Shown: one piece after another, positions 805 through 36,793 of the stretch
Layout: every line of letters starts with the position of its first letter
How positions within the stretch are numbered: the stretch's first letter is position 1
NCBI GenBank assembly: GCA_963759765.1
Contig: CAVXAL010000002.1
Coordinates: 621,710 to 685,709, forward strand
Direction: 5' to 3'
Length of the DNA: 64,000 bases
Origin: Candidatus Aminicenantes bacterium
Lineage (GTDB): Bacteria > Acidobacteriota > Aminicenantia > UBA2199
The notes under the pieces: generated by a model
What the model saw: the letters and a program-made list of their open reading frames with translations, nothing else
The model's database searches: none
What the model was told of the DNA's origin: nothing
Translations under genes and position numbers: made by a program

Positions 805-2448
805 TCAGATCGTCACGGTTTCCTTGTACTCCCCGAACACGGCGCGCAGTTGGTCGGCGATCTCCTGCAGGGTGGCGCAGGCTTTGACTGCGTCGATGAT
901 CGGCGGCATGAGATTCTGCTTGCCGGCTGCGGCGGCTTTGACCGAGGCCAGGGTTTCCATCACTTTTTTTGCCTCGCGTTCCCTTTTGACTTGCTGCAGC
1001 CGGGCGATTTGCCTTTCCTCGGATTCCTTGCTCACCTTCAATGTTTTTATATGGGCGAGGTTTTCCTCGATCTGGAACTGGTTGACGCCGACAATGATCT
1101 GTTCGCCCGCATCGATCTCCTTCTGGTAGGCGTAGGCGCTCTCCTGGATCTGCTTCTGGACGTAGCCCTTTTCGATGGCGACCAGCATGCCGCCCATCTT
1201 CTCGATGGTGTCCAGGTATTTCCAGACCTCTTTTTCGATCTCACGGGTCAGGCTCTCCAGGTAGTAGGAGCCGGCCAGGGGATCCACGGTGTCGGCCACG
1301 CCGCTTTCGTGGGCGATGATCTGCTGGGTGCGCAAGGCGACACGCACCGCCTCCTCGCTGGGCAGGGCCAGGGCCTCGTCCATGGAGTTGGTGTGCAGGC
1401 TCTGGGTGCCGCCGAGAACCGCGGCCAGGGCCTGGAGGGTCACCCGCACCACGTTATTGGCCGGCTGCTGGGCGGTCAGGGTCACGCCGCCGGTCTGAGT
1501 GTGGAAGCGCATCAGTTGCGATTTTTCGCCCGCCCGGAATTTCTCTTTCATAATCCTGGCCCAGATCTTGCGGGCGGCGCGAAATTTCGCCGCCTCCTCG
1601 AAGAGGTTGTTGTGGCTGGCGAAGAAAAAGGAGAGGCGCGGAGCGAAATCGTCGACCAGCAGCCCGGAGCGCAGCGCCGACTGCACGTACTCGATGGCGT
1701 CGGCAAAGGTGAAAGCCAGTTCTTGCACCGCCGTGGCGCCGGCCTCGCGGATGTGGTAACCGCTGATCGAGATGGTGTTCCACTTCGGCACACGCTCCTT
1801 GCAGAAGGAGAAGATGTCGGAGATGATGCGCAGCGAGGGCCGGGGCGGAAAGATGTAGGTGCCGCGGGCAATGTATTCCTTGAGTAAATCGTTCTGGATC
1901 GTTCCCGACAGGCTGGCCCAGGGCACTCCCTTCTGTTCGGCTACGGTCAGCACCATGGCCAGGATGATGGCGGCGGTGGCATTGATGGTCATGGAAACCG
2001 ATACCTGATCCAGGGGGATGCGGTCGAAAAGAATCTCCATGTCGCGCAGGGTATCGATGGCCACGCCGACTTTGCCCACTTCGCCTTGGCAGAGTGGCTG
2101 GTCCGAGTCCAGGCCGATCTGGGTGGGCAGGTCAAACGCCACGCTCAAGCCGGTCTGGCCGTGTTCGAGAAGATAACGGTAGCGTTCGTTGGACTCTTCG
2201 GCCGAACCGAAGCCGGCATACTGGCGCATGGTCCACAGCTTACCGCGGTACATGGTGGGCTGGACGCCGCGGGTGAAGGGATAGGCGCCGGGATAGCCGA
2301 TATCCCTTTCGTAATTCAGGTCGCTGATCTCCTCCGGGCCGTATAGCCGCTCGACGGGCAGCGAACTGGTTTTGAAGCGGTGCTGGCGCTCCGGATTCTT
2401 GGCCAGCGTCTTTTTCAGAACGCACTCTTCCCATTCCTTTTTTTTCAT
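805..2448 (-). CDS. methylmalonyl-CoA mutase family protein, large/catalytic (TIM-barrel) subunit without B12-binding domain
   Basis: 547 aa; [30 protein letters not shown] and [11 protein letters not shown] blocks typical of acyl-CoA mutases. Confidence 0.85.
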
Positions 2449-2546
2449 TTTTTTTCGCCTAAAATTGCGAGATTAATTCTTATTGAAGACGCCTTGGCGC
2501 GGGACCATCTGGATGGAAGGGTCGGAGGGCTGCCGAGCGGCTGGGC

Positions 2547-2795
2547 TTAATCTCTTTCGCTGATTTTCTTTTTGAATTTTTCTCGAGTACCTTCGTAGAG
2601 GGTTTTGGCGTTTTCGCTGACTTTCTCGACGTTGTCTTTGATATCCTCGCCGATTTTATCGGAAAAGTCCTTGATCATTTTCCGCGTTTCCTTGCCCGAC
2701 TGGGGAGCGAACAGCAGGGCCAGTCCGGCCCCGAGGGCAGCACCGGCAAAGAAGCTGCATACCGTTCCCATTCCGTTCTTTCCTTCACTGGACAT
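2547..2795 (-). CDS. YtxH domain protein
   Basis: 82 aa, single N-terminal TM segment then charged helical tail; commonly paired with DUF948. Confidence 0.5.
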   Translation of the reverse strand: MSSEGKNGMGTVCSFFAGAALGAGLALLFAPQSGKETRKMIKDFSDKIGEDIKDNVEKVSENAKTLYEGTREKFKKKISERD

Positions 2796-3158
2796 TTATT
2801 TCCCTCCTTTGATTTTTTTTACGAGTTTCCAGCCCAGGCGGATGGCTGGCAGCAGGGCGAAAAACCCGGCTGAGCGTTTGAGTATGTTCTGGTTGACAAA
2901 TTTCAGCGTATCGCCGACGTGGTCGACTGTTCGTTTGGAGGATGCCAGCACTCCATCCAGGTGTTCGAGCCGCTCCTCGGCCAGAGTGCCGACTTTGTTC
3001 AGCTGACGGGCCAGGTCGCGGATCTCTCCGGAGGTCCGTTCCATGTCGGCCAGTAGCAGCCGCAGCTGGTTGATGGCCGGGATCAAGGTTAGGACCAGCA
3101 GCAGAAATCCCAGAGAAAAAACCAGCGCGACGATGAAAAGGATGATGGTTGTTGTCAT
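2796..3158 (-). CDS. DUF948 family membrane protein
   Basis: 120 aa, N-terminal TM helix plus coiled region; abuts YtxH gene (1-nt spacing). Confidence 0.5.
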   Translation of the reverse strand: MTTTIILFIVALVFSLGFLLLVLTLIPAINQLRLLLADMERTSGEIRDLARQLNKVGTLAEERLEHLDGVLASSKRTVDHVGDTLKFVNQNILKRSAGFFALLPAIRLGWKLVKKIKGGK

Positions 3159-3200
3159 CGTGTGCCCTTGTTTAATGATATACCAAAGCCGACCGGCCTG

Positions 3201-4079
3201 TCAATCGGTTGTTCGCTTTTTAAGCTTTTCCAGAATCTCCATTGCCGCCTGCGGATTTTGGGCGCGGATGGCCACCGTCAGGTCGCTCTTTTCCCAAAAG
3301 GGGTGATGGCAGACGTTCAGGCCCTTCTCCGCGGCAAGTGCGCGGACCTGTTTCCGCCACTCCTTTTCCCAGCGGAAATAGCGGGGGTAGCGAAGTCGGA
3401 ACAACGTTTCCAAGATTGCCTTCTGCGGCATCTCCTGGCGCCCCAATCGGATGCGGTTGATTTGCCGCATGATCTCGGCAATCGTCGTTTTTCTGGCAAA
3501 GGCGATTTCCTCGGCCATTTCGATCAGTCTCCCTTGCTGGTTCTCGTTGAAGACGACCCGGCGCAGCAGCCCGGCCAAGGCGCTACGGTCTTGGCCGGTC
3601 ATGGTCAGCATTTTGCAAGCGCTCTTCAGAACCAGGCGATCGTTTTGCAATAATGTCTTAAGCGGAGGAGCCAACAGGCGATCCAGGTTTTTTAAAAGTT
3701 CATTGTTTACAGCAAATCCCAGCTGCGGCTGCTGCTGAATATCAGCCGGGCTGCGCCAGCGGCCGATTTTCTTTACGAAAAGCAGTTTTTCGTAAAGATT
3801 GAGCCCGGTCAGCAGCTGTTTCAGGTTGAAGTTGAGAATCAGCGCCTGTGCAGGTGGCAGGTCCACTTCCCACATCCAGGCGTACCGATGTTTCTTCTGC
3901 CTCAGCAGGGCCAGGTAATCGTGGCCGGCAATCACCCGTTTCTTGCCGTCGACCACCAGCAAGGGGAAACCGGGCAAGCGGCCTGCGAGCGTTTGATAGG
4001 AATCGGGACGGAGAGGATAGGAGAGGCGGAAGCGGTCATCGCGCCGGATTCCAGCAAGAGTCATGCGGGTGGTGTTCAT
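3201..4079 (-). CDS. hypothetical protein with ParB/Srx-like N-terminal fold (degenerate motif)
   Basis: ORF track gives 590 aa from 4973, but that extension runs antisense through the well-supported patatin gene. The internal ATG at 4079 (MNTTRMTLAGIRRDDRF...) gives 293 aa and leaves a 108-nt divergent intergenic region. VDGKKRVIAGHDYLALL resembles the ParB GxxRxxA region with R-R replaced. Confidence 0.45.
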   Translation of the reverse strand: MNTTRMTLAGIRRDDRFRLSYPLRPDSYQTLAGRLPGFPLLVVDGKKRVIAGHDYLALLRQKKHRYAWMWEVDLPPAQALILNFNLKQLLTGLNLYEKLLFVKKIGRWRSPADIQQQPQLGFAVNNELLKNLDRLLAPPLKTLLQNDRLVLKSACKMLTMTGQDRSALAGLLRRVVFNENQQGRLIEMAEEIAFARKTTIAEIMRQINRIRLGRQEMPQKAILETLFRLRYPRYFRWEKEWRKQVRALAAEKGLNVCHHPFWEKSDLTVAIRAQNPQAAMEILEKLKKRTTD

Positions 4080-4187
4080 TGTCAATGAAACCTGTCCGCG
4101 ATTATAACAAATCTGCGGCCGGTTCGCGAAGGGATGGCCCGCTATCGCGGGCTGCGGTTTTAATGTAGAATAAAACGGGAGACAGAG

Positions 4188-5096
4188 ATGGCCAACAGGC
4201 AACGAAGGCGATCGGCCTTGAAGGTCGGTATTGCTCTGGGCGGCGGTGGCGCCAAGGGTCTGGCCCATATCGGGGTATTGAAAGTGCTCGAAAAACACGG
4301 CATTGTTCCGGCCCAGGTCTCGGGCACCAGCATGGGAGCCCTGGTCGGGGCGCTGTACTGCGACCGGGGGAGCATCGCCGAGGTGGAGAAATTCGTCCTG
4401 GCTTTCGAGGATGCCAGCCTCAATCCCTACCTTTTTCCGAAGCTGTCCAGCACCGGACTGATCTCGGAAAAGAAAATCAGGAACTTTTTGGTCTCGCTCT
4501 TTGCTGATATGAGGATCGAGGATTTGGCGCGGCCATTTTGTTGCACCGCCACCGATATTTTGAGCGGCGAGGAGGTGGTTTTCTGCAAGGGGAGCCTGGT
4601 GGACGCGGTGCTGGCGAGCATTTCGGTGCCGGTCCTTTTTCCGGCTCATCGGTATCGAAACCGCTTCTTGGTCGACGGAGGGCTGGTCGATTTGGTACCG
4701 GTCGCCCCCTTGCGCCAAAACGGGGCGGATTTTATCATTGCCGTGAACGTGATTGTCCCTCCGCGCGCCGGACAGGCCGAACGGCGCCCGGACAGAAAGG
4801 AAAGGAAAAATCGCCTGCTCATTGAACGAATCGACTCTCTGCTCTCCCGGCGCCCGGCCCGCGACAAGGGAGTCCCCAATCTCATCGAGGTTCTGTTTTC
4901 CACATTTGAAATCATGCAGCAGAAGCTGGTTCTCTCTTGTCTCGAGCTGGATCAGCCGGATGTCGCCATCCATGTCGAAACGTCCGAATTCAAGTTCTAT
5001 GAGTTCAACAGCCCGACCGAGCTCATCGCCCGCGGGGAGGCGACGATGCGCCGCTTGATCGGGAAGGTCGAAAAGAAGATAGAACGGCAGGCCTGA
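4188..5096 (+). CDS. patatin-like phospholipase
   Basis: GGGGAKG oxyanion motif, GTSMG nucleophile elbow, DGG catalytic Asp region. Confidence 0.85.
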   Translation: MANRQRRRSALKVGIALGGGGAKGLAHIGVLKVLEKHGIVPAQVSGTSMGALVGALYCDRGSIAEVEKFVLAFEDASLNPYLFPKLSSTGLISEKKIRNFLVSLFADMRIEDLARPFCCTATDILSGEEVVFCKGSLVDAVLASISVPVLFPAHRYRNRFLVDGGLVDLVPVAPLRQNGADFIIAVNVIVPPRAGQAERRPDRKERKNRLLIERIDSLLSRRPARDKGVPNLIEVLFSTFEIMQQKLVLSCLELDQPDVAIHVETSEFKFYEFNSPTELIARGEATMRRLIGKVEKKIERQA

Positions 5097-8330: not shown

Positions 8331-8996
8331 ATGAAAAAGTATTTTGGGTTTGTTCTGGTTCTGATTTTAGCTTTGACTCTTGTCGCCGCCGAACAAACAC
8401 ACAAAGTGGTCATTGTCCGGGGAGGGTCCAGAGCGATGGCTGTGCCCATCCAGGCTTTGTCCTTTTCGAAAGCTTTTTCCCAGAAAGCCGCGATCAAACC
8501 CCGGTTTTTTTCTGCGGGAGAAAAATTGAAAATCCTTCAGGAGGCCAAGATCAATGAGGTCAATGGTGTTTCTGCAGCCGCCTGGAAGGTGACCCTCAAA
8601 TCGCCCAACATCAACGACCGAATGTTTATCACGCTGAGCCAGCCCAATTTCGTTTCCACAGAATTTTATGGCACGGGCGTGGCTTTGTTTGATAACAGCG
8701 ACCAATTTTACAAAGCCAATGGAACAGACAAGGCTTTTAATTTGGACTTTTTTGTTGAAGCTGGCAAATGGTATTTGCTCGATTGCGCGGTCAGCGAAAC
8801 CGATGCCACCTACCGGGTGTTTGTTTATCAACAATCGGGTTCTTCGCAGATCACTTTTGAGAATCCTTCGGACGGGCACCTTTTGATCGTCCTGCAGGCC
8901 ACTGCCGCCGGTCAAGCGTATATTGCTGTCACGGGAAATTGCCCCCGCCAGGGTAATTGGGGCATTTACGGAGCCGAAATCACCGTCATCAAATAA
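8331..8996 (+). CDS. secreted hypothetical protein (cleavable signal peptide)
   Basis: MKKYFGFVLVLILALTLVAA signal; RBS GAGGAGG upstream; no recognisable domain. Confidence 0.5.
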   Translation: MKKYFGFVLVLILALTLVAAEQTHKVVIVRGGSRAMAVPIQALSFSKAFSQKAAIKPRFFSAGEKLKILQEAKINEVNGVSAAAWKVTLKSPNINDRMFITLSQPNFVSTEFYGTGVALFDNSDQFYKANGTDKAFNLDFFVEAGKWYLLDCAVSETDATYRVFVYQQSGSSQITFENPSDGHLLIVLQATAAGQAYIAVTGNCPRQGNWGIYGAEITVIK

Positions 8997-9047
8997 GCCC
9001 TTACTTTCAGGTCTACAACCCGATCGAGTGTTGGCTGCTGAAATTTA

Positions 9048-9064
9048 AAATTTTTTAAAAATTT
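9048..9064. repeat. left copy of island-flanking direct repeat (aaattttttaaaaattt)
   Basis: Matches 10739..10754 (aaattttttaaatatt) at 15 of 16 positions; candidate attL/attR or target duplication. Confidence 0.4.
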
Positions 9065-9071
9065 CTTAAAA

Positions 9072-9455
9072 CTACGGCTTAATATGAAGAACCGAGCTCT
9101 CCGAAAGGTGTATTGCCTTCAGCAGTATTTCTGATTCATTAGATGGCCATCCAATAATATTAGTATGACGTTTTGGGATATTATCTGGATCCAATTTTAA
9201 GCAACAACTATAAATTGAAGATGCGGTTATATCAGCGCGTGCTTTTAAACTACTTGGTCTATTTTTCTCAACTTGAACTCCTATTAACCATATTGCGCTT
9301 TCAGACAAGTCGTATATTCTAAAAACTGACAATTTCTTATTTTGAGGCGGCATGAAGGCACGATGCTTAACACAGTTATTTTCTGAACTAAAATCTTTTT
9401 TTGAAAAAAGAAATCTTGATAGTTTTTCAGATGCTTTGATTTGATGATTATTCAA
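9072..9455 (-). CDS. hypothetical protein (island gene 3, 127 aa)
   Basis: AT-rich ORF; start 1 nt after stop of gene 2; no family recognised (..KHRAFMPPQNKKLSVFRIYDLSESAIWLIG..RHTNIIGWP..). Confidence 0.5.
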   Translation of the reverse strand: MNNHQIKASEKLSRFLFSKKDFSSENNCVKHRAFMPPQNKKLSVFRIYDLSESAIWLIGVQVEKNRPSSLKARADITASSIYSCCLKLDPDNIPKRHTNIIGWPSNESEILLKAIHLSESSVLHIKP

Positions 9456-9456
9456 A

Positions 9457-9942
9457 TTAAAATCCCAACCTTTTAAAATTTTCTATTATTACTGGTGGCA
9501 ATGCGTTTTCGAAATATTCATTCCCATGAATCTGATTCCCCCCAAATATTCCCGCATATTTAATAATTTTTGTATTCCCAATATTTATTATAAAAATTCT
9601 ATTTCTGTCCTTCCTCCATTCAAATCCCACATCTCCATTTGGTTCGATACAAATTTCAGGGAATGGAATAAAGGATGGTATAAGATTTAGAAATTTTTTA
9701 GCTTCAAAGTAAGCATCAATGGATAAGGGTTTGGCTCCCTCTCCATCCCAATCTTCATTCTTACATTCAATTTGTAACTTTTTTAATTCATAAAGGATTT
9801 GATTAAGAAACAATTCGTTAGATGTCTTGTTCTTCCAAATTGGTTTATTTTCATAAATCTTTTCATCTTTGGAGCTTGTACAACTTTGATAACTATTGAT
9901 ATTATAGCATATAGGTGTGGAGCATATAGCTGGGGTGCTCAT
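9457..9942 (-). CDS. hypothetical protein (island gene 2, 161 aa)
   Basis: AT-rich ORF; its ATG overlaps stop of gene 1 (ATGA); Cys-rich N-terminus CSTPICYNINSYQSC; no family recognised. Confidence 0.5.
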   Translation of the reverse strand: MSTPAICSTPICYNINSYQSCTSSKDEKIYENKPIWKNKTSNELFLNQILYELKKLQIECKNEDWDGEGAKPLSIDAYFEAKKFLNLIPSFIPFPEICIEPNGDVGFEWRKDRNRIFIINIGNTKIIKYAGIFGGNQIHGNEYFENALPPVIIENFKRLGF

Positions 9943-10685
9943 ATAAATAACTCCTTTAATTTTTCTGTTATTAAAGAGAAAAAAATTCTATTTTTGAAAT
10001 TTCGTAACCTTTCAAATAATTCCCAAGCTTCGTTATTTTCAAAAAATTCTTTATGTTTAAATACATCTATATCCAGCATTATTGGACAATACCTTGGATC
10101 AACAATCTGTTCGAAGACTTGAGTGATAATTGCTGTAATTCCGGTATCTGGTTCTTCAATTACAACTTTATTAAAGAAACTATTTACTCCTTGTGGCAAT
10201 TCTTTTGGAATAATCGGCGCTGCTGTTAAATACTCATTAAAATCAAGCAATGGTTGCGGATATAAAGGAATACTAATTTTATTTATATACCTAACTGCAA
10301 CTCTTATGATTTCAGGATTTACTAAATCTCTATATATCTTCCAAATTCTATAAGCCTCATCTCTAAGATTCTCCCAGCATTCATAAGGGTTTAACCGATT
10401 AAAAGTAAAGCCATCTATTCTTGTTTGGACAATCTGCTTTTTATCAATAGTTCTAAACCAATACCCTTTTAAAGTTTCTGAACTTGTCGATAAAGGTTTT
10501 AAATCTTTTTTTAACTCAAGCTTACTTTCAAATTCAATTGCCTCTGTTTTTTCTGGATATTGATTTTTTATTTTTTCGTGAATAGAAAGAAATTGTTTCA
10601 CATCAAAATCACTTTTCAACTTTGTCTTTAAATCAATTAATGCTTCATAAATCGGAGCATTATTAAGATGAGCTATCTCTGCCAC
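9939..10685 (-). CDS. hypothetical protein (island gene 1, 248 aa), possibly TIGR04255-like uncharacterised family
   Basis: GTG start at 10685 with GAGGAAAA SD. N-terminal LNNAPIYEALIDL and central RVAVRYINKISIP resemble my recollection of TIGR04255 proteins; unverified. Confidence 0.5.
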   Translation of the reverse strand: MAEIAHLNNAPIYEALIDLKTKLKSDFDVKQFLSIHEKIKNQYPEKTEAIEFESKLELKKDLKPLSTSSETLKGYWFRTIDKKQIVQTRIDGFTFNRLNPYECWENLRDEAYRIWKIYRDLVNPEIIRVAVRYINKISIPLYPQPLLDFNEYLTAAPIIPKELPQGVNSFFNKVVIEEPDTGITAIITQVFEQIVDPRYCPIMLDIDVFKHKEFFENNEAWELFERLRNFKNRIFFSLITEKLKELFI

Positions 10686-10707
10686 TTTTCCTCACATTTT
10701 TTATTTT

Positions 10708-10737
10708 ATTATAGCAGCACTCAATCTTTTTTCTCAA
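10708..10737 (-). promoter_or_regulatory. candidate sigma70 promoter for the island operon (TTGAGA-18-TGcTATAAT)
   Basis: Read on minus strand between purA stop and island gene 1; extended -10 TGn. Confidence 0.35.
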
Positions 10738-10745
10738 TAAATTTT

Positions 10746-12020
<1,275 letters not shown>

Positions 12021-33522: not shown

Positions 33523-34002
33523 CTCTTCCTTTTTTAACTTGACATTTTTCCGTGAATTGAACTCGCAATAGAATTTTTGGGAGGTCTTGATATACCAGTC
33601 TTCTTTGGAATAGGCGGTGAAGATGACCTCGCCGCTGATCGTTTGCCTGCCGATCAGGGCGGTTTCACTGACTTTGAAGGGGATTTCGATCTCTTTCTGC
33701 AGGTCGAGAAATACCTTCTCTTTCTCCTGGACGGTGGGTAAGTTGAGTTCCGAGCCGATGAAAAACATCTTGGCAAAGGAGCAGTTTCCGTTCTCAGCCA
33801 GTTTGATCATGAATTCCGGGTTCGAGGATATCTTGATGTCGGAACGGGGGCTGATCTTGATTTTCAGCATCCCCTCCTCCCCTTGGCGGATGATGGGGGG
33901 AGTGACTGTCGCATCGATCTTGAGAAAATCCTCCTGGCTGATCAGGGGGAAGCAAATGGTAAGAAAAATTCCCCCGGCAATGGCGTTGCGGCGGAAATTC
34001 AT
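33523..34002 (-). CDS. secreted hypothetical protein, lower-GC; 3' end unresolved
   Basis: MNFRRNAIAGGIFLTICFPLISQ signal peptide. ORF frame has no stop until 32542, which would mean a ~480-nt antisense overlap with the epimerase gene; true end probably near 33523-33560 with an indel. Confidence 0.35.
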
Positions 34003-34091
34003 GTCAGTCATATATACCATTTTGCCTGCGCTGTCAATCAGCTGCAGAGCCAGTCCGAGGGGTGGTAATGGGGGTTGGTGCTGAAAGAGAG

Positions 34092-34508
34092 CTAGTTTTG
34101 CGACCCGGCCGGTAATTTTCTCTCGAGAATATCTTTGATGGAGATATACAGAAATCGGGTCTGTATAGCCTGTTCCAGAATTTCCCAAACCGATTTGGCC
34201 AGGCAACTTTCCACCAGCGGACATTTTTTATCGTTCAGGCAATCGGTCAAATATATTTTTTCGTCGAAGGCGTCCATGATCATCTTGATAGTGATCTCCT
34301 CTGGTTTCTTATTCAACACGTAGCCGCCGTATATGCCTTGGACGCTTTTGATGATGGCGGCTTTTTCCAGAGGGCCGGCCAGTTTACGCAGGTACTTGGA
34401 GGATACCTTGATCTCGTTTCCCAGCTTGCTGGTATTGATCACCCGGTTTTCCCGGGCGATCCCCAAGACCATGCGCAGGCCGTAACGGATTTTGGTATTC
34501 ATTTTCAT
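34092..34508 (-). CDS. Rrf2 family transcriptional regulator with three-Cys Fe-S ligand motif
   Basis: N-terminal wHTH (KIRYGLRMVLGIA); CLNDKKCPLVESC (C-x6-C-x5-C). Confidence 0.8.
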   Translation of the reverse strand: MKMNTKIRYGLRMVLGIARENRVINTSKLGNEIKVSSKYLRKLAGPLEKAAIIKSVQGIYGGYVLNKKPEEITIKMIMDAFDEKIYLTDCLNDKKCPLVESCLAKSVWEILEQAIQTRFLYISIKDILERKLPAGSQN

Positions 34509-34671
34509 GAAAGAAAATATAACTCATCTGGTTTTAATTGTCAATTGTCAAGTCTTTTTTTCTTAATTTTTTATTTTGTGTAGAAAAAAGGTAAATTTTC
34601 CTGCAATATCGGCTATTTTGCTAAATGAACGCTTTCCGGGTCTTGTGCTGAAAAAAAGTGAGGTGCTGGCC

Positions 34672-35670
34672 CTATTTCTCTTTTTGCAGCCCTTTCAGAA
34701 ATTCCTCGGAAGCTATCTTGAGCTTGCGCAGTTCGGTGAATTTGGCCACCAGCCGGTCCCTTTCTTTCCAGTGCTCGTCATGTCTGCTGGAATCGATCTT
34801 GTCTTTTTCCACGTTGAGCAAGCCCATGTAGCTCCAGGGGTCCGGGTAATTGGGTTCCAGCTCGGCTGCTTTCTGGAGTGCGGCCAGTCCCTTATCGATG
34901 ATTGCTTGCCTTTCCTTGGGTGCCATCAAATCGGGCGGGGTCTGATAGCTGTGGGCCCAGCAGAGATGGCCGACGCGGTAATAAGCGTCCGCCAGCATGC
35001 TGGTTTTTTCCTTCTCATCGAGGTCGGTCAGCTGCTGGATTTTTTGGAGCCGCAGCTCTTGGTATTTCATAGCGTCATCCCATTTTTTACGGTCAAAATA
35101 ATAGCGGGCCAGGAACAGATACCCTTCCGGGTCATTGGGGTTGAGGTCGATCCGTTTCTGGAACATCTCCACGGCTTTGTCGCCTTTATTGTAACTGGTA
35201 TAGAAATCCGCCAGCACGCTGTAAATCTTGGGATCGTTGGGATTGTTTTCCAGTACTTTAAGAAAATATTTTTCGGCTTCCTCGAAGTTTTTCGTCTTGT
35301 CGTTGATATCGCCCAGGGCCAGGATAATGTCCTTGTTATTCGGGTCCACGTCCAGGGCCTTCTGCAAGTAATCCTTGGCATTGGCGGCCAGTTCTTTGTT
35401 ATTCGGCGTATCGTCGCCGGGCTTGTAGAGCATGGCGTAGGCGGTTCCCAGGTAGAAATAGACGGCTTTGAAATTGGGATTGAGTTTCAGGGCCTCCTCG
35501 TATTCGCTGACCGCTTTCTTATACTTTTCTTCCGAATAGTATTTATTGGCCGTTTTAAAATGACTGTTGGCTTTCAAGTTAGCCACTTTGAATTTTTGGC
35601 AGGCAGAAAAGCCGAGAACGATCACCCCCAGCAAGCACATTACCAGCAGGGCGGATGACAATTTTTTCAT
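34672..35670 (-). CDS. TPR-repeat lipoprotein
   Basis: MKKLSSALLVMCLLGVIVLGFSAC lipoprotein signal with GGAGG RBS; multiple TPR units (LNPNxxxxYxxLGxxY). Confidence 0.75.
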   Translation of the reverse strand: MKKLSSALLVMCLLGVIVLGFSACQKFKVANLKANSHFKTANKYYSEEKYKKAVSEYEEALKLNPNFKAVYFYLGTAYAMLYKPGDDTPNNKELAANAKDYLQKALDVDPNNKDIILALGDINDKTKNFEEAEKYFLKVLENNPNDPKIYSVLADFYTSYNKGDKAVEMFQKRIDLNPNDPEGYLFLARYYFDRKKWDDAMKYQELRLQKIQQLTDLDEKEKTSMLADAYYRVGHLCWAHSYQTPPDLMAPKERQAIIDKGLAALQKAAELEPNYPDPWSYMGLLNVEKDKIDSSRHDEHWKERDRLVAKFTELRKLKIASEEFLKGLQKEK

Positions 35671-35758
35671 ACGGACCTCCTCAACATTGAGATACATATA
35701 TAACGGAATATCGCCCAAAAGTCAAGTTTCATCCGGCCTCAATCTGCTGCCGGGGAAT

Positions 35759-36793
35759 TTAACTGTCTCGATCTTGTTGCATGGTCTCCCAGGTCTTTTT
35801 GAAGATGTCCGGGGAATCCAGATGGTAGGGGCATTTCTCCACGCAGGAGCGGCAGGCGACGCAGTCCTTGAAGCTTTTATTCAGGGCATTCAGCCGTTCC
35901 CAGACCCAATCCTTTAGTTCGTAGAGGAAATAGTAGTTCTTCAGCACGTGCAGGAAAGCGATGGGCAGGCCCTGGGGGCAGGGCATGCAGTATTCGCAGC
36001 GGCGGCAGAAATTCTCACCCAGCCGTTCCTTTTCCCGTTCCAGGTGTTTCCGCTCGGAAGCGGTCAGGGGAGTCAGGTGCTGCAGTGCAGCCAGGTTGCG
36101 GCGGATCTGGGTGAGGGAATTCATACCCGGGATGGCCACCTCGATGCCGCTGCTGAAAATGAAACGGAAGTTGAGGGCGATTTCGCGGATGTTGCCGCCG
36201 CCGATCGGTTTCATGGCGATGGTGCCGATGTGCTGGCGACGGGCATGGGGGAGGAGCTCTTCGGCGGCCGCGCTTTCGATGTGGTTAAAGGGAACTTGGA
36301 TGGTGGCAAACGCAAAGGCCTGCAAGGCCTTGAGCACGATCCAGGGTTTGTGGCCGGAAAGTCCGATATGCCGGATTTTACCACGCTCCTGGGCCTTGAC
36401 CATGGCGGACAGCGCGCCGCCCGGCGCCAGCACTCTGTCCAATTCGGCCTCGCTGGCCACGTTGTGACACTGGTAAATATCAATGCAATCGGTTTGCAGC
36501 TGGCGCAGGCTGGTCTCGATGTCCCTTTCCACCTGGCCAGCGTCGCGGCTGAGTGTCTTGCTGGCGATGACCACCTGACCGCGGTGGCGGGAAAGGACCC
36601 GACCCAGCTTCAGCTCACTGTCGGTATAAACGCGGGCGCTGTCGAAAAAATTGATGCCCATCTCGACGGCGCGTTCCAGCAGCCGGTCGCTGGCGCGCAG
36701 AGAGAGCCGCTGGATGGGAATGCCGCCCATGCCCATGCGGCAGACCTGCAACCCGGTGCGCCCCAGCATGATCGGCGTGTTTGCCTTGGCCAT
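35759..36793 (-). CDS. aldo/keto reductase with C-terminal 4Fe-4S ferredoxin-type cysteine cluster
   Basis: AKR barrel motifs (GMGGIP, FFDSARVY, IGLSGH); C-terminal CRRCEYCMPCP...CVACRSCVEKCP; start at MAKANTP to avoid overlap with maf. Confidence 0.75.
   Translation of the reverse strand: MAKANTPIMLGRTGLQVCRMGMGGIPIQRLSLRASDRLLERAVEMGINFFDSARVYTDSELKLGRVLSRHRGQVVIASKTLSRDAGQVERDIETSLRQLQTDCIDIYQCHNVASEAELDRVLAPGGALSAMVKAQERGKIRHIGLSGHKPWIVLKALQAFAFATIQVPFNHIESAAAEELLPHARRQHIGTIAMKPIGGGNIREIALNFRFIFSSGIEVAIPGMNSLTQIRRNLAALQHLTPLTASERKHLEREKERLGENFCRRCEYCMPCPQGLPIAFLHVLKNYYFLYELKDWVWERLNALNKSFKDCVACRSCVEKCPYHLDSPDIFKKTWETMQQDRDS

Follow-up and report, generated by a model that had tools for sequence, protein, structure and literature searches.

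In a 64,000-nucleotide stretch of the Candidatus Aminicenantes contig CAVXAL010000002.1 (hereafter the window), three genes, g1, g2 and g3, are encoded on the minus strand of an AT-rich island downstream of purA, with g1 belonging to the uncharacterised family TIGR04255. We propose that they constitute a mobile, self-contained tripartite toxin-antitoxin (TA) or abortive-infection module, in which g3 would encode the toxin, g2 its antitoxin and g1 a third component, and we place the probability of this reading at about 0.55. The initial annotation of the window had already likened the operon to toxin-antitoxin or multi-component defence systems. That suggestion is supported by the predicted fold of g3, by the links of g2 and g3 to PDC-M32A and PDC-M32B of the PADLOC collection, by the neighbours of homologous cassettes and by the exchange of modules behind TIGR04255 genes, and it is from these that we infer a function. 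The three genes are co-inherited in many phyla and also in prophages and on plasmids.

Co-inheritance of the three genes

A failure of the homologues to lie together elsewhere had been named in the initial annotation as one of the observations that would refute its reading. They are co-localised, whether the starting point is g1 or g3. The first scan used a g1 alignment and one genome per species; it gave 463 relatives, and the 80 best loci among them were retained. In most of these, local phmmer detected homologues of g2 and g3 directly downstream of the g1 homologue. It yielded 47 non-redundant complete cassettes, all in the same g1-g2-g3 order, from hosts assigned to Nitrospirota, Desulfobacterota, Planctomycetota (Brocadia, Scalindua), Bacteroidota, Chloroflexota, Acidobacteriota, Dadabacteria and NC10. 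An independent scan of metagenomes, based on g3, gave 80 loci. A g2 gene was present upstream in 63 of the 63 loci with room for it, and both g1 and g2 were present in 45 of the 47 with room for both; of the two exceptions, one has a divergent g1-like open reading frame (ORF) and the other is an orphan.

The spacing of the genes is conserved as well. In the window the stop codon of g1 and the start codon of g2 share the tetranucleotide ATGA, and the g2 stop is followed, after a single base (9456), by the TTG start of g3; both features had been described earlier and both were confirmed in the sequence. The overlap of -4 recurs in 45 of the 47 non-redundant cassettes, and the distance between g2 and g3 lies between -8 and +16 nt in 44 of them, mostly from 1 to 14 nt. 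Small, adjacent, co-directional and translationally coupled genes in a mobile and sporadically distributed unit have the architecture of a type II-like TA system. The pairwise divergences of g1, g2 and g3 are correlated (r = 0.72-0.85), with g1 the most conserved of the three proteins, and in 52 of 54 homologous loci the cassette has a lower GC content than the DNA on either side.

A word-indexed protein search with g2 and g3 returned the same strain only. This reflects a limit of sensitivity and not rarity, because phmmer on the loci and a full hidden Markov model (HMM) search found thousands of relatives. When g2, g3 and distant g2 homologues were compared with plasmids by tblastn, essentially nothing was found.

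The third protein and its predicted ADP-ribosyltransferase fold

The g3 protein is predicted with high confidence to adopt an ADP-ribosyltransferase (ART) fold, with similarity to solved structures of the ART superfamily. The residues conserved among its homologues are R14 (strand 1), F34, P36, S43-V-F-R46 (strand 2), W56, R73, D75, H97 and W103, and even the very distant versions found in other cassettes (L096, L121, L126 and a Ralstonia record) retain R, S-x-x-R and H-A. The catalytic triads sought were H-Y-[EDQ] and R-S-E. That of g3 looks to be R-S-H rather than R-S-E, with His97, from its place in the order of the chain, apparently standing where the catalytic glutamate would be expected, and with a histidine in place of the glutamate the chemistry may be non-canonical. 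In Pfam no family was found for g3 at E <= 1, and hence no match to the DarT, RES, Tpt1/KptA or DUF952 profiles. Across 48 g3 homologues Pfam gave only two single-member, chance-level matches to unrelated families, and PDB sequences gave no match either to g3 alone or to its profile.

Two other interpretations of the cassette give g3 a different role. According to the first, it would be a housekeeping or stress operon for RNA repair or for NAD or ADP-ribose metabolism, with g3 acting as a Tpt1-like 2'-phosphotransferase beside a kinase-like g1. The structural alignment with Tpt1/KptA covers only about 91 residues of a 179-aa Tpt1 chain, at 11% identity and with no Pfam match, and at 127 aa g3 is too short to accommodate the second lobe of the Tpt1 structures, the one that binds RNA. 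The sporadic distribution, the foreign composition, the presence of cassettes on phages and plasmids and the pairing of TIGR04255 with unrelated modules (see below) are likewise at odds with such an operon, which we regard as very improbable. According to the second, g3 and g2 would be an interbacterial polymorphic toxin-immunity pair delivered by a secretion system, and the structural neighbours of g3 do include type VI effectors with immunity proteins (Tse2-Tsi2, Tne2-Tni2, Rhs toxins). But g3 stands alone, with no N-terminal domain of the trafficking, PAAR or Rhs type. The gene that would confer immunity lies ahead of that for the toxin and is coupled to a third gene, a cytoplasmic one, and in the loci examined no secretion genes are linked; we give this possibility hardly any credence.

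The second protein

In the protein encoded by g2 the N-terminus varies, and the C-terminal part, about 115 residues long (about 45-160), is a conserved 'WDGYGA ... EPxGEIxFEW' domain, in which W65, D66, G67, A70, P95, P101, G103, E108, W109, G131, G140 and P149 are the conserved positions. This layout is one reason to regard g2 as a putative neutraliser or adaptor. Another is the natural fusion P0294 (483 aa), in which sigma-70 regions 2 and 3 (Sigma70_r3, 7e-10) are followed by a C-terminal g2 domain, and a third is that the second gene of other TIGR04255 cassettes is annotated as a helix-turn-helix (HTH) protein or a transcriptional regulator. The family is large: among 1.84 billion cluster representatives, its profile detected 7,134 proteins with E <= 1e-3 and 3,253 with E <= 1e-10, mostly of about 165 aa and some with N-terminal extensions. 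Pfam gave no match to g2, alone or across 48 family members, and PDB sequence searches with the single sequence and the profile returned only designed coiled coils, via low-complexity sequence. The g2 protein of a metagenome-assembled genome (MAG) labelled Thaumarchaeota (L035) is one residue off that of a Deltaproteobacteria MAG (L032), and this is probably a case of mis-binning and not an archaeal instance.

A cysteine-rich N-terminus had been pointed out in g2. This is correct for the protein in the window and is not a feature of the family, in which C7 is found in 23 of 48 homologues and C12 in 18 of 48, while 17 of the 48 have no cysteine within the first 25 residues. A zinc site at this N-terminus was considered and rejected, since the cysteines are not conserved.

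The g2 domain also occurs by itself. In the IMG/VR collection of viral contigs, 39 loci encode it and the full cassette is present in only 3 of these, the other 36 being without g1 and g3. Such solitary proteins (L099-L137) are small, with lengths of 95-236 aa, and many phage genomes encode them. They may serve as decoys against defence; alternatively, the function of the domain may be broader. A weak SocA/Panacea-like N-terminus (E = 0.003, short of the cut-off) is seen in one of them, L129.

The first protein and the modules that follow it

The assignment of g1 to TIGR04255 had been proposed on the strength of two motifs, and it holds. Membership was taken to mean a whole-protein score of at least the curated cut-off of 30 bits, together with an alignment over nearly all of the 252-position NCBIfam model; g1 scores 117.5 bits (E = 8.4e-34), with residues 7-247 aligned to model positions 2-251. 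The motifs themselves, NAPIYEAL and RVAVRYINKI, both occur in g1, at columns of the family alignment that are invariant or nearly so. The g1-like partners in distant cassettes also exceed the cut-off (L126, 59.6 bits; L121, 109.2; L096, 117.7). In all, 739 homologues of g1 were found, the closest outside the source strain being 61-62% identical. No match to g1 was found in Pfam or PADLOC, or among PDB sequences by single-sequence or profile search, and PHROGs gave nothing significant; the models of PADLOC-DB v2.0.0 also failed to match four other TIGR04255 proteins. No mention of the family was found in the searchable literature.

The g1 homologues are not tied to g2 and g3. Among the 80 genome loci, 14 (13 of them full length) carry instead a cassette in which the g1 homologue overlaps the gene for a protein of about 143 aa by -4 and is followed by a DUF7689 gene (E = 1e-43); loci of this type are L042-L045, L052-L062, L072 and L080. 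The 143-aa middle protein has the motif HPAYQxIIGMG ... HWFWAL, and DUF7689 shows a papain-like pattern of cysteine and histidine, 'NCIAWA ... H'. No mention of DUF7689 was found in the searchable literature, and it has no PDB sequence match. The g1 proteins of these cassettes form one cluster, nested among the g1 proteins of the ART-type cassettes and 45-51% identical to them. The middle proteins of the ART-type and DUF7689-type modules often begin MS[VMIL]A[VT]; the choice of the second residue is in part dictated by the ATGA overlap, and the remainder could be a motif that binds g1.

Plasmids provide further combinations. In Vibrio parahaemolyticus plasmid CP063527 (158-2105, L219), TIGR04255 is followed by a 179-aa hypothetical protein and by a protein annotated as zeta toxin family, an assignment that rests on the annotation of the record and on a visible Walker A sequence, GCNGAGKS, a PDB sequence check having given no match. 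On a Crinalium plasmid the TIGR04255 gene overlaps by 4 the gene of a 182-aa protein, which precedes one of 171 aa, and on a Thermus plasmid TIGR04255 and a 147-aa protein lie beside VapBC, methylase and CRISPR genes. In Rhodococcus and Acinetobacter plasmids a transcriptional regulator or HTH protein comes second, with a 273-aa hypothetical protein next in Acinetobacter, and on a Methylocystis plasmid the TIGR04255 cassette is beside a gene annotated as abortive infection family. These swapped modules indicate that TIGR04255 is the constant first gene and that the pair downstream of it is exchangeable.

It might be argued that g1 is the real effector, perhaps a kinase- or ligase-like enzyme dependent on nucleoside triphosphates, and that g2 and g3 are accessory, with the ART fold of g3 serving as a ligand-binding module. 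We consider this improbable. The replacement modules end in toxin-type proteins, namely the annotated zeta toxin and DUF7689 with its papain-like residues, the usual logic is that of a variable effector with a constant partner, and Foldseek gave no significant match for g1.

A bolder extension of the proposed module would make TIGR04255 a widespread and hitherto unrecognised 'hub' in control of a range of antitoxin-toxin pairs that are unrelated to one another (ART-like, DUF7689, zeta, HTH-led). The solitary phage g2 proteins would be counter-defence decoys that neutralise the ART-like toxin, and g3 would found a new minimal ART family of the R-S-H type. The hub could sense infection or could modify its partner enzymatically. 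In line with this idea, TIGR04255 is always first and more conserved than its partners, and along a large antiparallel sheet it bears a row of acidic and basic residues that do not vary. We put this forward tentatively and think it, taken as a whole, rather doubtful.

Comparison with PDC-M32 and with established systems

PDC-M32 is a two-gene (A, B) phage-defence candidate of PADLOC, one of 145 untested candidates put forward through 'guilt-by-embedding' in BREX, DISARM and type I restriction-modification (R-M) loci, with a count of 98 in the supplementary cassette table (Payne et al., bioRxiv 10.1101/2024.01.29.577857). The PDC-M32A profile is matched weakly by 47 of 48 proteins of the g2 family (best 9e-6) and PDC-M32B by 7 of 48 of the g3 family (best 4e-5), and both A and B are matched also by the more distant prophage versions L096 and L126. 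The gene order agrees, A preceding B as g2 precedes g3, but PDC-M32 has two genes, whereas the cassette adds a separate leading TIGR04255 gene that matches no PADLOC model. These profile matches point to a distant relationship of g2 and g3 with PDC-M32 rather than to membership. By its length PDC-M32A might be a fusion of TIGR04255 and g2 (250 + 125 = 375), but no TIGR04255 protein matches the A profile.

By analogy, an ART-fold toxin and its cognate neutraliser in a mobile operon would be a system of a known kind, comparable with DarTG and RES-Xre. With respect to DarT-DarG, g3 has no DarT family match and no identified catalytic glutamate, g2 is not recognisably a macrodomain, and there is a third gene. 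With respect to the RES-Xre pairs (ParST, MbcTA, VPA0770/0769), g3 has no RES Pfam match, g2 has no HTH, and in the cassette the antitoxin precedes the toxin, with an extra gene in front of both. The omega-epsilon-zeta and toxin-antitoxin-chaperone (TAC) systems are alike in having a conserved third component beside an antitoxin-toxin pair, in three co-transcribed genes, and the likeness to omega-epsilon-zeta extends to the TIGR04255 cassette whose last gene is annotated as a zeta toxin; by sequence, TIGR04255 has no relationship to the omega repressors and SecB chaperones of these tripartite systems. What is new is that the three families have no Pfam match and no description in the searchable literature, where the TIGR04255 'hub' architecture is likewise undescribed, and that the closest system in a catalogue is a candidate, PDC-M32. 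None of the three proteins has a relative of solved structure that is detectable by sequence.

Genomic neighbourhoods

Homologous cassettes repeatedly adjoin R-M, Abi and TA genes. At one locus the cassette follows hsdR-Fic-hsdM, at another it follows genes for a methyltransferase, an AAA protein, an S8 peptidase and a ResIII protein, at a third an HsdR fragment and HsdS precede it and RadC and ParE follow, and at a fourth it is near Fic-like, MNT and CHAT genes. Six IMG/VR contigs carry the cassette, four of them as the full triad, and two are prophages in which TIGR04255 and genes resembling g2 and g3 are followed by AbiTii (Pfam, 5e-39). Of the neighbours of cassettes, we count the type I R-M genes, AbiTii, ParE and VapBC in favour of a toxin-antitoxin or defence role.

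The triad is present also in a record deposited (unverified) as a P2-like Ralstonia phage (L221, YO139_2, 2317-4384). This record is flagged unverified and may include host DNA past the end of the prophage; downstream of the triad lie ORFs that seem, judged by eye only, to resemble PAAR, DUF4123 and type VI effector genes.

A model for the cassette

In the model that we favour, g3 would be the effector, a toxin that uses NAD+ (nicotinamide adenine dinucleotide) and that might ADP-ribosylate a target, consume NAD+ or act, like Tpt1, on a phosphorylated nucleic-acid end. The g2 protein would be its cognate neutraliser, supplied in excess. For g1 we envisage a sensor, regulator, modifying enzyme or chaperone, coupled to g2 through the ATGA overlap and employed again in front of two-gene modules of other, unrelated kinds. 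Were a phage to infect the cell, or the cassette to be lost, g3 would be released from g2 and growth would stop. What we infer comprises the toxicity of g3, its neutralisation by g2, the NAD+ chemistry, the event that sets the toxin free and the part played by g1.

Several observations weigh against this model. The expected catalytic glutamate of g3 is not evident. The g2 protein of the window matches PDC-M32A only at E = 0.0015 and over 58 of its 375 positions (268-325), and the g3 protein of the window has no match to PDC-M32B. The g2 domain, being mostly solitary in viral contigs (36 of 39 loci), need not be an antitoxin. As to g1, the fold match is weak and a Foldseek search gave no significant match, which bears on the role given to it here. 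Finally, the cassette of the window and those at L087 and L089, out of six g1 homologues for which the contig was inspected, sit among housekeeping genes (after ftsZ; among redox genes).

This last observation is also what might be expected of a purely selfish addiction module, which would stabilise itself or the DNA that carries it and play no part in phage defence. Such a module would have the same architecture and the same signature of horizontal transfer, three isolated cassettes among housekeeping genes would suit it, and cassettes do occur on plasmids. The repeated proximity to R-M, Abi and TA genes is a point on the other side, as are the cassettes in prophages and IMG/VR viral contigs and the distant relationship of the g2 and g3 families to a candidate that is embedded in defence systems. 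On this evidence, simple addiction seems to us unlikely.

Layout of the locus and signals for expression

The features of the locus are collected in Table 1. The island is bounded by purA (10746-12020; stop codon 10748-10746) and by a convergent gene that ends at 8996. Its GC content is about 0.30 (roughly 9035-10750), compared with 0.55-0.59 in the flanks and about 0.59 in the genome, and by this composition it is horizontally acquired DNA. A Logan contig from sequencing run ERR10755944 covers this locus and shows 4 differences from it over 2,916 bases. The same run contains a second cassette, L083, which is from another organism and whose g1 is 61% identical to that of the window. Elsewhere in the window, positions 34001-36000 have a GC content of 0.48 against about 0.59 around them, possibly another foreign segment.

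Table 1. Coordinates of the cassette and of associated features in the window.
Feature	Position	Strand	Remarks
AT-rich island, about 1.7 kb	9035..10750		composition profiles; between the purA stop and the convergent gene
Sigma-70-like promoter, extended -10	10708..10737	-	consensus match only
g1, TIGR04255 family protein, 248 aa	9939..10685	-	GTG at 10685; TGA stop 9941-9939
g2, 161 aa	9457..9942	-	ATG 9942-9940; TAA stop 9459-9457
g3, 127 aa	9072..9455	-	TTG at 9455; TAG stop 9074-9072
Inverted repeat, left arm, AT-rich, imperfect	9049..9067		repeat search; pairs with 10736-10754
Inverted repeat, right arm	10736..10754		overlaps the purA stop and the -35 region

The promoter noted earlier in front of g1, TTGAGA-18-TGcTATAAT, is present. 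It consists of a -35 element, TTGAGA (10737-10732), an 18-nt spacer ending in TGc and a -10 element, TATAAT (10713-10708), and it is the best sigma-70-like site between 8900 and 10900, agreeing at 11 of 12 positions and having in addition the TG of an extended -10. As a class, promoter-like sites are not enriched in the AT-rich region (11 found, 8.3 +/- 2.9 in shuffles), and the weight of the promoter call lies in the quality and position of this one site and not in enrichment. Scans for tRNA genes, Rfam families and intrinsic terminators found none. The two arms of an inverted repeat, each of 19 nt and 84% complementary to one another, are located exactly at both borders of the island; they may be the relic of an insertion or a chance occurrence in AT-rich DNA, and their significance is uncertain.

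The translation starts differ in apparent strength. The GTG of g1 has GAGGA 3 nt upstream, and the ATG of g2 has a strong Shine-Dalgarno sequence, AAGGAG, the best ribosome-binding site of the three, while the TTG of g3 stands behind a weak one. Among the 47 homologous cassettes, g3 starts with an apparent TTG in 24 and g2 with ATG in at least 45. A strong site and an ATG for g2, as against a weak site and a TTG for g3, fit an excess of antitoxin over toxin. Members of the g3 family are now and then overlooked by gene callers: at L088:1662-2110 an intact g3 was left uncalled by the gene caller of the source, probably owing to its TTG start.

Implications

These comparisons turn TIGR04255, until now an anonymous and 'sporadically distributed' family, into a system that can be tested, and they single out g3 as a candidate minimal ART-fold toxin and g2 as a candidate antitoxin domain that phages carry as well. 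If the proposed model is true, the cassette would represent a new tripartite toxin-antitoxin or defence architecture and would offer a first way into the function of TIGR04255 and of the PADLOC candidate PDC-M32.

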